56,004 bases of DNA from a virus. Taxonomy: Duplodnaviria > Heunggongvirae > Uroviricota > Caudoviricetes. The position numbers and the translations under genes are program-made. Where the stretch lies: IMG/VR virus record IMGVR_UViG_2744054632_000003; one strand, 5' to 3'. Positions 34,418 to 51,470 of the stretch are shown one piece after another (the first letter of the stretch is position 1; each line of letters begins with the position of its first letter). The notes below the pieces were generated by a model, which ran no database searches, was not told the DNA's origin, and was given only the letters and a program-made list of their open reading frames with translations.

Positions 34418-34937
34418 TCAGCAACCCCGGTATCAGTTCATCCAGCGCGGCTGCTTTGTTCATGGCTTTGATGATATCCCGTTTCAGGAAATCAACATGT
34501 CGGTTTTCCAGTTCCGGAAAACGCCGCTGCACCGACAGGGGGATCCCGTCGAGAATACTGGCAATTTCACCTGCGATACGCGACAGCACGAAAGTACAGA
34601 ATGCGGTTTCCACCACTTCAGCGGAGTCTCTGGCATTTTTCAGCTCCTGTGCGTCGGCCTGCGCACGCGTAAGTCGATGGCGTTCGTACTCAATAGTCCC
34701 TGGCTGGAGATCTGTCTCGCTGGCCTGCAGCAGTTCTTCAACCTCCCGGCGCAGCTTTTCGTTCTCAATTTCAGCATCCCTTTCGGCATACCATTTTATG
34801 ACGGCGGCAGAGTCATAAAGCACCTCATTACCCTTGCCACCGCCTCGCAGAACGGGCATTCCCTGTTCCTGCCAGTTCTGAATGGTACGGATACTCGCAC
34901 CGAAAATGTCAGCCAGCTGCTTTTTGTTGACTTCCAT
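34392..34937 (-). CDS. nu1: terminase small subunit Nu1
   Basis: MEVNKKQLADIFGASIRTIQNWQEQGMPVLRGGGKGNEVLYD matches lambda Nu1. Confidence 0.95.
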
Positions 34938-34939
34938 TG

Positions 34940-35126
34940 CTCATTCCACGGACAAAAACAGAGAAAGGAAACGACAGAGGCCAAAAAGCTCGCTTTCAGC
35001 ACCTGTCGTTTCCTTTCTTTTCAGGGGGTGTTTTAAATAAAAACATTAGGTTACGGCGAAGAAGAACGGAAACACCTTAAACCGGAAAATTTTCATAAAT
35101 AGCGAAAACCCGCGAGGTCGCCGCCC
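34940..35126. other. prophage cos site (cosB and cosN)
   Basis: Reverse complement matches the recalled lambda left end GGGCGGCGACCTCGCGGGTTTTCGCTATTTATGAAAATTTTCCGGTTTAAGGCG; 12-nt cohesive-end sequence at 35115-35126. Confidence 0.85.
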
Positions 35127-47936: not shown

Positions 47937-48482
47937 TCATATTGCCCCCAGCATGGTGGTGACCATCGCCATCAATGGACCAGCCAGATCCGGGTCCACT
48001 CGAAACATCGACACAATGCCTTCACTCATCTCCTTCAGTTTCTGGTGGCGTGGTGCGTTGAGAATGACCGCCTGCTTTGCCTCACTGAGTTCCTTTTCCA
48101 TTTCAGCCAGCCGAGCCATGAAGCTATCCTGCTCAACCAGGTGGCCGCGATATTCCAGCGGTAGTACCGCCAGAATTGCCGGGGTCAGTTCACGCACGTT
48201 ATTTCGGTATTTTTCAGAATCGAATTTGTTATCGAGGAAGCGGAACAGCTTCTGGCGTGCACGACTGACATCATCAGGAAAATCGATGGTGCCGCCGCCC
48301 TGTGCTCGATACTCATTCACAATGAGTGCGGCAACTACATCCTGATTATCTTCAGCAGACCAGGCGCGGACGGCATCACGAATTTTTTCGTGGCCTGGCA
48401 CCTGTTTTATTTGAGAACGATTTATCACCGCAGTCGGGCTAAATCCGCTAGTCTGTTGGTATGTAAGTGGTTGCATAATCAT
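47937..48482 (-). CDS. YdaT-like regulator in the cII position
   Basis: EYRAQGGGTIDFP and LTPAILAVLPLEYRGHL resemble Rac YdaT motifs; sits between cro-like gene and O. Confidence 0.5.
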   Translation of the reverse strand: MIMQPLTYQQTSGFSPTAVINRSQIKQVPGHEKIRDAVRAWSAEDNQDVVAALIVNEYRAQGGGTIDFPDDVSRARQKLFRFLDNKFDSEKYRNNVRELTPAILAVLPLEYRGHLVEQDSFMARLAEMEKELSEAKQAVILNAPRHQKLKEMSEGIVSMFRVDPDLAGPLMAMVTTMLGAI

Positions 48483-48506: not shown

Positions 48507-48740
48507 TTAGGCGGCAGAATTACTCGCGTTAAACAATGGTGCGAGGTCGGGACGAATATCTGCTGGCTTAATCTTTCCACCAGTGGCTGAGACAATTTTC
48601 ATTACATAGCGGGCATCAATTCCGCCACCGTGTAGCCAACGCCAAACAGTGGGCTGGGCTACACCGCATAGATCTGCCAGTCGTTTTTGACTACCTGTAA
48701 TACTGATTGCGAGTTGAATGGTTTGATTTGTCATTATCAA
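48507..48740 (-). CDS. Cro-like HTH regulator (YdaS-like)
   Basis: 77 aa; HTH QKRLADLCGVAQPTVWRW; divergent from cI-like gene. Confidence 0.7.
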   Translation of the reverse strand: MIMTNQTIQLAISITGSQKRLADLCGVAQPTVWRWLHGGGIDARYVMKIVSATGGKIKPADIRPDLAPLFNASNSAA

Positions 48741-48844
48741 TTCCTATTGGTATTACAATGAATGAATAATAGCAATGCGTATTAACCATGGCAATAGCAA
48801 AACGTGTTTTGACCATCAATACGCAAGCGTATAAATTAAAACTT
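48741..48844. promoter_or_regulatory. OR/PR-PRM region with AATAGCAA(T) operator repeats
   Basis: AATAGCAAT at 48768-48776 and AATAGCAA at 48793-48800 (25-bp spacing) between divergent cro-like and cI-like genes. Confidence 0.4.
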
Positions 48845-49537
48845 ATGAAAAAAGAAACTCTTGCTGATCGCTTAAACCTAGCGATGGAACAATCTGGGAT
48901 GTCTCAAGGCGCTCTTGCAAAGGCGTCTGGCGTAGCTCAACCCACAATCTGGAGACTGACAAGCGGCAACGCGCGCGGCTCAACAAAAATTGTTGAAATA
49001 GCTAATGCATTGGGTGTTCGAACAGAGTGGCTCTCATCAGGCATAGGCCCGATGAGAAATGACGGTCAACAATCAGGGAAGCCTACTGTCAACCATTCCA
49101 AATACTTCAAGATTGACGTTCTTGATATAGAAGTGAGTGCCGGGCCGGGAGTCATCAACCGTGAGTTTGTAGAAGTCCTACGCTCGGTTGAGTACTCGTT
49201 TGACGATGCTCGTCACATGTTCGATGGCAGGAAGGCGGAAAATATCCGCATCATTAACGTGCGTGGTGACAGCATGTCAGGAACGATCGAACCAGGTGAT
49301 CTGCTGTTCGTTGATATCACGGTTAAATCTTTCGACGGTGATGGCATCTATGCGTTTCTGTACGACGACACCGCCCATGTAAAGCGCCTGCAAATGATGA
49401 AGGATAAGCTGCTGGTTATCTCTGATAACAAGAGCTACTCACCGTGGGACCCGATCGAGAAAGACGAGATGAACCGGGTGTTCATCTTCGGTAAGGTTAT
49501 TGGGAGCATGCCCCAGACGTACAGGAAACATGGATAA
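48845..49537 (+). CDS. cI: CI-like repressor (HTH + S24 LexA-like peptidase domain)
   Basis: HTH MSQGALAKASGVAQPTIWRL; C-terminal RGDSMSGTIEPGDLLFVD with Ser, and AHVKRL with Lys, as in the S24 autocleavage domain; start at MKKETL placed after operators. Confidence 0.85.
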   Translation: MKKETLADRLNLAMEQSGMSQGALAKASGVAQPTIWRLTSGNARGSTKIVEIANALGVRTEWLSSGIGPMRNDGQQSGKPTVNHSKYFKIDVLDIEVSAGPGVINREFVEVLRSVEYSFDDARHMFDGRKAENIRIINVRGDSMSGTIEPGDLLFVDITVKSFDGDGIYAFLYDDTAHVKRLQMMKDKLLVISDNKSYSPWDPIEKDEMNRVFIFGKVIGSMPQTYRKHG

Positions 49538-49865
49538 TCAGTACTGTGCTGATGAGTCGTTTAGGGGATAGTAAATTTAATTAGAATTAGACGAGAGCGA
49601 TTTATGGATTGTGACGCTTTACAGGATATAAAAATCTCTCTTAGGTATGACGGAAAAGATGCTTTAAATCATGAAATAGATTTGAACTGCCCTAGGAGAA
49701 TCCCTAAAGGGTTTTTCTAAAGTTCTCTCAACAGCAGCTTCTTTCTCTGTTACACAAAAATATAGTAAATACATTAATTATCAGGAAGTTAAGGTTTACG
49801 CACGCGAAGCAAAAGCTAACTGCTTTACTCTTGAAGCAGTTCTTAACTTCGCCACTCAGAACCAG

Positions 49866-50468
49866 TTGTTCTCGGGGATCGCCGCAACTATACTTGGCGC
49901 AATACTACAATATATTTTTGCGAGAAATTCTAACAAGAAAGATGAAATGAAAGCTTTGCAGCAGTCACTTGAAAAGGCCATAGAGGCACTAGGAAACAAG
50001 GATGCTGGAACCATTGATAAGTTGATCTCTTTGATTGACCGAATGGCTGTAGAGCTTCGCCCCTCTGTAAGGCAGGCAGTATCACCTATTGGTAATACTT
50101 GCGATCAGATAAGTGTTGCAACAAATGTTGACGGCTGCCTTCTAAAAGTTAATGAGAGAGATAAAGCTGAAATTGATAGGCTTGATGATGATGAAGTTCT
50201 CGGTCTTCGTGAGTATCGTGCTTTTCTTACAGAATTTGATGCACAAAATATGACAGCTAAAATAATTTTAGATGGTGATGACTCAAAAAAGAGAATCACT
50301 GCTGAAATTAGCGATCCAGCTGCAGGAAAGAAGAATAACCCGTATATTAGAGCTCTTAGTGCATATATATCAACCAAAGGTGATCCATCTGCAGTATTCA
50401 CTATAACCGCAAAGGCTACTGTTAAAAAAGGCCAGATAAACAGGTTATTTATTGTAGATGCGAAATGA
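49866..50468 (+). CDS. membrane-anchored protein downstream of cI (rexAB-position moron; exclusion candidate)
   Basis: 200-aa ORF with TTG start (frame open from 49686, no in-frame ATG); N-terminal [19 protein letters not shown]; followed by terminator. Confidence 0.45.
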
Positions 50469-50472
50469 TTTC

Positions 50473-50499
50473 CCCGGCCGTCGTGCCGGGTTTTCTTTT
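50473..50499 (+). terminator. rho-independent terminator ending the cI-side operon
   Basis: Hairpin CCCGGC-cgtcgt-GCCGGG followed by TTTTCTTTT. Confidence 0.6.
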
Positions 50500-50619
50500 G
50501 CCTCCCCTCATCACACACCGTTCAAAAAACCACCATAACCCCCGCTTCAGTTATCGCTATGCGATGCAAGTCACAAAATTAATTCCTTTTGCTATCAAAC
50601 AGTTAATATCAAAATGCAT

Positions 50620-50670
50620 CAATCAATAGCAATAAGTATTGATATCACTAATAGCAATAGCTATTATCAC
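50620..50670. promoter_or_regulatory. OL/PL-like operator region
   Basis: AATAGCAATA at 50625-50634 and 50650-50659 (25-bp spacing), plus palindrome AATAGCTATT at 50656-50665; same half-site as the OR region. Confidence 0.4.
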
Positions 50671-50860
50671 CATGTCGCAACAACACAACGATACGGCAAC
50701 CACCTGATTCGCCGTTGCGATGACCGCTTAGATCCGCAGCTTGAATTTCAGCAGGCTCCGGGGAGTGCGAGGGGTGAAGCGGACGCGTTAACGTCGGTGT
50801 GACCAGCTGAAATCAACTCAACACTTCATACCTCAGTCGCTTCAACGAGGCGGCTTAGTT

Positions 50861-51151
50861 ATGACAACCGGCGGCCATCCACCGCCTGAATACGCGCAGA
50901 AGTCTCTATATGTTCAGCAGCCCAGCTTACGGGCAGGAGTTTTTATGGTTCATCAACATTACGGAACTCAGACCGTTAATCGCGGTGCCGTCCGGCCAGG
51001 TATGCTGGTTAAACACAAAGATGGTACCTGGACGGCATCAGCTAATTTGCGCGGTCGGCTTTACTTGCATCGCGGCATCGAACGAACGTACACAAAAGAT
51101 TTGCTCGTGGAGGTTTACCTGAATGGTACTGGCGGTGGTCTGAGCCACTAA
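50861..51151 (+). CDS. hypothetical early-left protein (not N-like)
   Basis: 96-aa ORF at the position where N is expected; no Arg-rich motif. Confidence 0.3.
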   Translation: MTTGGHPPPEYAQKSLYVQQPSLRAGVFMVHQHYGTQTVNRGAVRPGMLVKHKDGTWTASANLRGRLYLHRGIERTYTKDLLVEVYLNGTGGGLSH

Positions 51152-51155
51152 CTAC

Positions 51156-51470
51156 TCACTTGTTTGGGCCGTGTGGAGCCAAAGCAAATTCAAGGTTGTA
51201 GATACTCCCATCAGGGGCTTTGAAATCAACCTCAAACCGAGATGGCGGATTGAATGGATCGAGTACATTTTCTGCTACGCATGTAGATCTCCAATTGATA
51301 TGGCCTTTGCCAAGCGAGCGAGATTCCCACCAAGCTCTCCAGGTCTGGTCTTGCGGTTGATCACTCCCCTTTTCCCTTACATACCAATGATTCTTTTTCG
51401 ACTGCTTACCCATTTCTGCGGTTGGGTACATCGGAGAAGACTTTAACTTATCAATCAGCATTCTAGACAC
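51156..51470 (-). CDS. hypothetical Trp-rich protein on opposite strand in early-left region
   Basis: 104-aa ORF; no recognised family. Confidence 0.35.
   Translation of the reverse strand: MSRMLIDKLKSSPMYPTAEMGKQSKKNHWYVREKGSDQPQDQTWRAWWESRSLGKGHINWRSTCVAENVLDPFNPPSRFEVDFKAPDGSIYNLEFALAPHGPNK

Follow-up and report, generated by a model that had tools for sequence, protein, structure and literature searches.

The feature at positions 49,866 to 50,499 of the window, by which we mean the whole 56,004-nucleotide stretch of DNA analysed here, a lambdoid prophage of E. coli, is very probably a frameshifted copy, most likely inactive, of a prophage accessory gene, the orthologue of phi80 gene 40A (DUF7946 plus DUF7947). 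As reconstructed from the sequence, the true gene comprises 287 codons and runs from ATG 49604 to TGA 50466-50468. The initial annotation had placed here a gene of 200 aa beginning at TTG; that reading frame is instead the 3' part of the 287-codon gene, which carries a 1-nt insertion. Its doubts about the start were justified, the true one being ATG 49604. The features of the region are listed in Table 1.

Table 1. Features of the immunity region and of the broken gene in the window.
Feature	Coordinates	Strand	Remarks
cII-like gene	47937-48482	-	
cro-like gene	48507-48740	-	
OR operator region	48740..48801	both	divergent PR and PRM-like promoters; 48740-48837 with promoters
PR-like promoter	48794..48766	-	TTGCCA-17-TATTAT, consensus scan
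PRM-like promoter	48809..48837	+	TTGACC-17-TAAATT, consensus scan
cI-like repressor	48845..49537	+	HTH and Peptidase_S24; 230 aa from RefSeq's ATG
Broken 287-codon gene	49604-50468	+	between cI-like repressor and terminator
5' fragment	49604..49720	+	ATG, 29 native codons, 9 out-of-frame codons, TAA 49718-49720
Shifted-frame remainder	49686..50468	+	codons 30-287 and stop; includes ORF 49866-50468
Frameshift site	49690..49692	+	CCC against CC in the intact allele; 1-nt insertion, codon 30
Internal hydrophobic helix	49866..49922	+	residues 88-106 of the full protein; possible membrane anchor
First in-frame ATG of the remnant	49947..49949	+	Met115 of the full protein
DUF7947 C-terminal domain	50205..50465	+	OB-fold-like beta barrel (predicted)
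Intrinsic terminator	50473-50499	+	CCCGGC-6-GCCGGG hairpin, then TTTTCTTTT; end of the putative cI-40A transcription unit
OL operators and PL promoter	50625..50667	+	PL: TTGATA-17-TATTAT, promoter scan
kil, antisense ORF (function not assigned), gam, bet, exo	from 50945	mostly +	

The two parts of the gene were identified by profile searches and by comparison with intact alleles. The 5' fragment matched phrog_5147 at positions 1-37 (E=1.2e-12) and DUF7946 at positions 1-18, and it was identical to the start of the intact protein WP_000340376.1. The shifted frame matched DUF7946 at profile positions 19-183 (E=1.3e-45, 156.1 bits against a gathering cut-off of 27), DUF7947 (E=1.2e-18, 67-68 bits against a gathering cut-off of 27), and phrog_5147 at positions 29-287 of 287 (E=4e-160); with E values such as those for DUF7946 and phrog_5147, the long open frame is not a product of chance. 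Because the two pieces match consecutive parts of phrog_5147 and DUF7946, they represent a single gene broken by a frameshift. In an alignment with two intact genomes and one carrying the identical frameshifted sequence, the window read TGCCCTAGG where the intact allele read TGCCTAGG; the allele encoding WP_000340376.1 has one C fewer and translates to 287 aa. In the window allele, translation from ATG 49604 would stop after 38 residues, 29 of them native. Family members occupy one uninterrupted frame of about 270-300 codons, and the window copy is split between two frames; judged by its sequence, it belongs to the DUF7946 plus DUF7947 family by descent but is a pseudogene. A hairpin near the frameshift was considered as an intragenic terminator or recoding signal and rejected (z about -1.5 against shuffled sequences, the same in both alleles).

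The remaining 750 nt of the gene would be left untranslated or would be translated only weakly from an internal start, so that the function of the window copy would be lost. One internal start deserves consideration. The frameshift allele could make a 173-aa soluble C-terminal product from ATG 49947, similar to phage phi80 40B and with partial or regulatory activity, which we regard as improbable. In support of such a product, Met115 lies just after the hydrophobic helix and was invariant in two family alignments and nearly invariant in a third; "gene 40B" of the 1988 phi80 record X13065 starts exactly at residue 115 of 40A; GAGGAA directly precedes the ATG in many phi80-like members; and older RefSeq annotations called a 173-aa CDS from ATG 49947 (WP_001566183.1). 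However, the window allele has no Shine-Dalgarno motif before this ATG (aagaaagatgaaATG, duplex -0.9 kcal/mol), and a conserved K-K-E/D-E peptide explains the purine-rich upstream sequence equally well. The gene models in X13065 are unreliable because 40A contains a frameshift error in that record and appears there as two pieces. The Shine-Dalgarno motif was discarded as evidence for a start at Met115 in this allele, being found in phi80-like members and missing from the window allele. An internal-start isoform is possible for the family and poorly supported in the window allele.

The distribution of the insertion was examined by megablast against 5,426 complete E. coli genomes, 77 of which carried the segment. 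Over 981 nt, the search returned identical records together with many that were one base shorter. The insertion was present in at least seven of the 77 complete genomes, whereas, among the matches listed, another 53 were one base shorter; it was also found in two IMG/VR prophage contigs (L065 and L066). The nearest intact allele was that of strain 23CRST032, in which the 981 nt were otherwise identical, the prophage backbone was shared, and the neighbouring proteins were the same; the mutation is therefore recent. In strain AST216, whose copy of the gene is identical to that in the window, NCBI PGAP labels the equivalent of 49604-50468 as "DUF7946 domain-containing protein, frameshifted"; the pseudogene is thus already catalogued in public databases. 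Independent inactivations were also detected, namely an IS1A insertion in strain VG1046-3E9 and a truncation in locus L092. The window copy is accordingly an ordinary pseudogene of a catalogued prophage gene family.

Single-base differences in homopolymer length are a common type of error, and the extra C is a single-base length change in a short homopolymer. It might therefore be an assembly or sequencing error, with the gene intact in the real organism. This is very unlikely, since the insertion is shared by complete genomes of differing laboratory, host, and country of origin and by the two prophage contigs, and common inheritance within one prophage lineage is a simpler account. Homopolymers of just three bases are seldom miscalled.

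The 200-aa reading frame itself exists as originally described: the ORF list contains a frame from TTG 49866 to 50468 on the + strand, the frame is open from 49686, directly after TGA 49683-49685, and no in-frame ATG, GTG, or TTG precedes 49866. It opens with a hydrophobic stretch, its first 19 residues having a Kyte-Doolittle mean of 1.85. The proposed N-terminal transmembrane helix is supported as far as the hydrophobic stretch is concerned, but not in its placement, which is internal and corresponds to residues 88-106 of the full protein; the helix appears N-terminal only because ORF 49866-50468 is a truncated remnant. An independent gene that starts at TTG 49866 and encodes an exclusion protein with an N-terminal transmembrane anchor would agree with the ORF and its hydrophobic beginning, and the position and the terminator also match that description. 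Such a gene is nevertheless highly improbable, as all full-length relatives have about 87 additional N-terminal residues and the missing N-terminus is found just upstream in another frame. In addition, the preceding sequence (cgccactcagaaccagTTG) contains no Shine-Dalgarno motif, and a protein starting at this TTG would lose the conserved residues D16, G17, A20, H23, L30, S33, and G36. Finally, programmed +1 frameshifting might restore the full-length protein, for example at GGG-UUU-UUC-UAA 49709-49720, where tRNA-Phe slipping by +1 on UUUUU ahead of the TAA would bring translation back into the proper frame. This is extremely unlikely, because the intact form is the prevalent one (at least 53 of the 77 genomes) and needs no recoding, the conserved L30, E32, and S33 would be replaced by P-R-R-I-P, and the local hairpin (z=-1.5) is no better than those of shuffled sequences and is not changed by the insertion.

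The broken gene lies within the immunity region, whose promoters and terminator are found where they would be expected. A cI-like repressor had been reported upstream on the same strand, and we found it to end at 49537 and to match Pfam Peptidase_S24 (E=1.6e-18), HTH_3 (E=1.5e-6), and phrog_4 (E=4e-70); the RefSeq CDS WP_024185289.1 has the same coordinates. Copies of the AATAGCAAT-type repeat were clustered at OR and OL only, with the OL copies at 50625 and 50650, so that operator repeats are present on either side of the broken gene. The -10 hexamer of the PRM-like promoter ends 7 nt before the cI ATG, so that the cI mRNA probably has no leader or a very short one. By analogy with pRM of lambda and phi80, this promoter is likely to be that of a cI-40A operon. 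The broken gene is the sole gene from the cI-like repressor to the terminator. The terminator was as strong as first proposed, a G+C-rich hairpin followed by a T-run; the hairpin itself (50473-50490) has six G-C pairs, a folding energy of -12.1 kcal/mol, and z=-2.1. The G+C content is 0.375-0.42 over the broken gene and about 0.50-0.53 in its flanks. No RNA family was matched in an Rfam scan of the entire window.

The slot had been likened to that of lambda rexAB, and this holds: the gene is on the same strand as the cI-like repressor, within the interval from OR to OL, and its terminator is located just before OL/PL. In lambda, rexA-rexB lie in this slot, on the cI strand and flanked by cI and OL, and are presumably co-expressed with cI in lysogens. 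The likeness does not extend to the proteins. RexAB, which excludes T4 rII and other phages with loss of membrane potential, combines a sensor with a membrane channel, and RexB is a multi-pass membrane protein, whereas only a single gene is present here and the 40A homologue has one hydrophobic segment; hhalign comparison gave probabilities of 0.09% for RexA and 0.24% for RexB. The comparison with the position of sieB, in contrast, had to be withdrawn, because lambda sieB is located at 34482-35036, beyond N, and the slot is therefore not that of sieB. The SieB protein of lambda and P22, like other small exclusion proteins of this kind, is expressed from the prophage, associated with the membrane, and active against superinfecting phages. 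Any resemblance would be functional only; no match to SieB was obtained in Pfam (E<=1) or PHROG. A further positional parallel is bstA of the Salmonella prophage BTP1, which encodes a demonstrated abortive-infection protein. It is a single accessory gene that directly follows the prophage repressor, has a Rho-independent terminator of its own, and keeps this position across different prophages (PMC8585504). Abortive-infection genes, rexAB and bstA among them, have a recognised hotspot in the cI-N interval (PMC8585504). BstA and the 40A homologue are alike in gene position, but the Pfam scan showed no family common to both.

The family is defined by PF25678 (DUF7946), PF25679 (DUF7947), and phrog_5147. 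Its member in phi80, gene 40A (PHI80_46, AFV29182.1), is 62% identical to the intact allele over 285 of 287 residues and is likewise a single gene in this slot, following cI on its strand and preceding OL/pL. In contrast to the window copy, phi80 40A is intact, and the repressor and immunity specificity of the two prophages differ. The GenBank label of phi80 40A, "acetate kinase superfamily domain", was not reproduced in Pfam at E<=1. When 1.84 billion representative proteins were searched with a profile, 613 clusters were obtained at E<=0.001, and nearly all of the best 150 of these 613 were 270-300 aa in length with one architecture, fragments aside. The protein family was matched by neither PADLOC nor NCBIfam models, and PDB sequence and profile searches gave nothing significant among solved structures. 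In a literature search, neither DUF7946 nor DUF7947 was mentioned in any paper found, and nothing useful turned up for phi80 40A or under its accession numbers; the Tai paper covers phi80 orf63/64, not 40A, and no experiment on any member of the DUF7946 plus DUF7947 family was found in the literature.

To describe the genomic context of the family, 84 related loci from IMG/VR and GTDB genomes were sampled. In 80 of them an S24-like ORF lay on the same strand no more than 2.6 kb upstream, and in 63 of those 80 the gap between repressor and gene was 150 nt or less (median gap, 67 nt). The repressors of the related loci formed 20 clusters at 50% identity, with 19 of the 20 cluster representatives matching Pfam Peptidase_S24. 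The order cro(-), S24 repressor(+), 40A homologue(+) was seen in Vitreoscilla, in two different Morganella prophages, in a Neisseria species, and in two metagenome-assembled genomes. A few family members, including those of two Chromobacterium prophages, were at other prophage sites, such as behind the lysis genes, or had the opposite orientation. In other prophages the homologue adjoined a SIR2_2 gene or a HigBA pair. AT-rich relative to its flanks, the gene thus behaves as an accessory insert ("moron") moving with repressor genes of diverse specificity.

The hydrophobic helix of the intact protein was then considered together with a structural model. Residues 88-106 (Kyte-Doolittle mean 1.85, as above) have a charge of -1 upstream and +2 downstream. 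A 19-residue segment with a mean of at least 1.6 was present in 123 of 186 full-length relatives, at a median position of 88, flanked by charges of about -0.5 on the upstream and +1.2 on the downstream side; in the most distant members the helix was less hydrophobic. Membrane anchoring through residues 88-106 is plausible from these sequence properties. An N-out, C-in topology, as read from the charge bias, would require export of the 87-residue N-terminal domain without a signal peptide. An AlphaFold2 model was made for a 90%-identical protein (P0001; mean pLDDT 77, pTM 0.58). Its N-terminal part was a small alpha/beta domain in which residues 56-88 were modelled poorly; the hydrophobic helix (91-108) and three more helices followed, and residues 168-286 formed a beta-rich C-terminal domain predicted with confidence. 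This C-terminal domain is OB-fold-like, and its closest structural matches include SilF/CusF-type metal-binding proteins of the periplasm. Foldseek found nothing in the PDB at E<=0.001 and, in BFVD, only three uncharacterised phage proteins, one of them labelled DUF6575. The residues that are invariant in the family alignments, K219, R230, Y247, and K270, are all in the C-terminal domain; being basic or aromatic, they would suit a domain that binds nucleic acid or some other anionic ligand, which is only suggestive.

Taken together, a tentative function can be proposed for the intact protein. In lysogens, the intact gene would be transcribed with cI from the PRM-like promoter, with transcription ending at the 50473-50499 hairpin; we infer this cI-40A operon from an arrangement that parallels phi80 and lambda. 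The protein might then serve as a single-protein, lysogen-expressed factor against superinfecting phages, acting by exclusion or abortive infection. The central helix (88-106) would hold it at the inner membrane, and the helical region and the OB-fold-like C-terminal domain would face the cytoplasm, as the charge distribution around the helix suggests, where they could bind a phage-derived ligand, either nucleic acid or protein. The exclusion or abortive-infection role is drawn by analogy from the slot and its known occupants, rexAB and bstA, and the proposal as a whole falls somewhat short of being probable. The window copy has probably lost this function. It is possible, and we put it forward with a little more reserve, that the family represents an unrecognised single-gene anti-phage system carried with repressors, in which a membrane-tethered protein would sense a component of an incoming phage through its cytoplasmic OB-fold domain and then block or abort the infection; it may have two isoforms, one of full length and one starting at Met115.

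Alternatively, the intact family may not be anti-phage and may instead modulate induction or the lysis-lysogeny decision, or change the envelope or physiology of the lysogen. The tight linkage to repressors across 20 types would be compatible as well with a part in repressor or induction biology, the PADLOC search revealed no similarity to known defence proteins, and the C-terminal domain resembles proteins of the SilF/CusF type. We consider such a role rather unlikely, because the known occupants of the slot, rexAB and bstA, are defence genes, and because the gene is dispensable and has been inactivated repeatedly, a pattern commoner among accessory cargo than among core regulators. Certain members, moreover, lie away from any repressor. 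With regard to the exclusion or abortive-infection proposal, conserved occupancy of the rexAB/bstA slot gives reasonable grounds for counting the intact gene among candidates for new prophage defences.

For the window, the main value of these results is the correction of the gene model: because the apparent membrane gene with a TTG start is a pseudogene remnant, no function should be assigned to the window copy. For the family, they point to a conserved, uncharacterised occupant of the repressor-adjacent slot that has been present in phi80 since its 1988 sequence and is linked with no fewer than 20 types of repressor across Enterobacterales, Neisseriaceae, and further groups. The natural frameshifted and intact alleles offer a simple test of the defence reading. 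If that reading is true, the window allele would be a natural knock-out, and the intact allele of strain 23CRST032 would complete an isogenic pair.

The terminator and roughly the next 30 nt (window 50471-50520) were 96-100% identical to the corresponding sequence of phages Perceval and PhiR5_1, whose immunity is unrelated. Some portion of the 981-nt query carrying the DUF7946/DUF7947 gene was matched in 483 of 5,426 E. coli genomes, and the gene itself was present in only 77. The insert probably has its boundary at the terminator. In other prophages, more defence-like or toxin-antitoxin cargo was found directly 3' of the gene, ahead of the early-left genes: a 537-aa SIR2_2 protein in Vitreoscilla sp. 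C1 (L009 7661-9274) and a HigB/HTH pair in Neisseria sp. HSC-16F19 (L015 4019-4564).

The gene was also broken independently in prophages other than that of the window. An IS1A insertion interrupted it in E. coli VG1046-3E9 (L020 508-1205), and in one IMG/VR locus (L092) it was truncated past residue 161. Another IMG/VR locus (L068) carried a second frameshift with an ambiguous base within it; this frameshift may be an assembly artefact.

Features of the window around the DUF7946/DUF7947 gene
Feature	Window position	Strand	Assignment
cII-position gene	47937-48482	-	PHROG 'CII-like transcriptional activator', E=1e-66
PRM-like promoter (predicted)	48809-48837		
ATG, residue 115 of family protein	49947-49949		
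kil-like gene	50945-51151		phrog_294
104-aa ORF	51156-51470	-	unknown function; phrog_16212; RefSeq WP_000904075.1

On the repressor side, the RefSeq name of the cII-position gene, 'toxin YdaT domain-containing protein', conflicted with its PHROG assignment. The repressor start was called at ATG 48788, inside OR, by the mechanical ORF and at ATG 48845 by RefSeq. Given the predicted PRM-like promoter, the cI mRNA would be leaderless or nearly so, like that of lambda.

On the other side, a leader of about 280 nt separated PL from the kil-like gene; it held no N-like antiterminator ORF (window 50667-50945) and gave no Rfam match. The 104-aa ORF lay antisense between kil and gam. It was found in the comparison loci L001 and L003 and was missing from L002, which was similar in other respects, so this ORF is a second variable insert of the PL operon.

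In the older annotation of phi80 (X13065), 'gene 40B' (L006 3343-3630) begins at residue 115 of 40A. Two family alignments showed no variation in the methionine at this residue and a third showed almost none; this methionine was located immediately C-terminal to the hydrophobic helix. A Shine-Dalgarno-like GAGGAA preceded its ATG in phi80-like members and was missing from the E. coli allele. The 40B start, together with a conserved methionine just past the helix, suggests that the DUF7946/DUF7947 family might make a second, soluble isoform beginning at residue 115.
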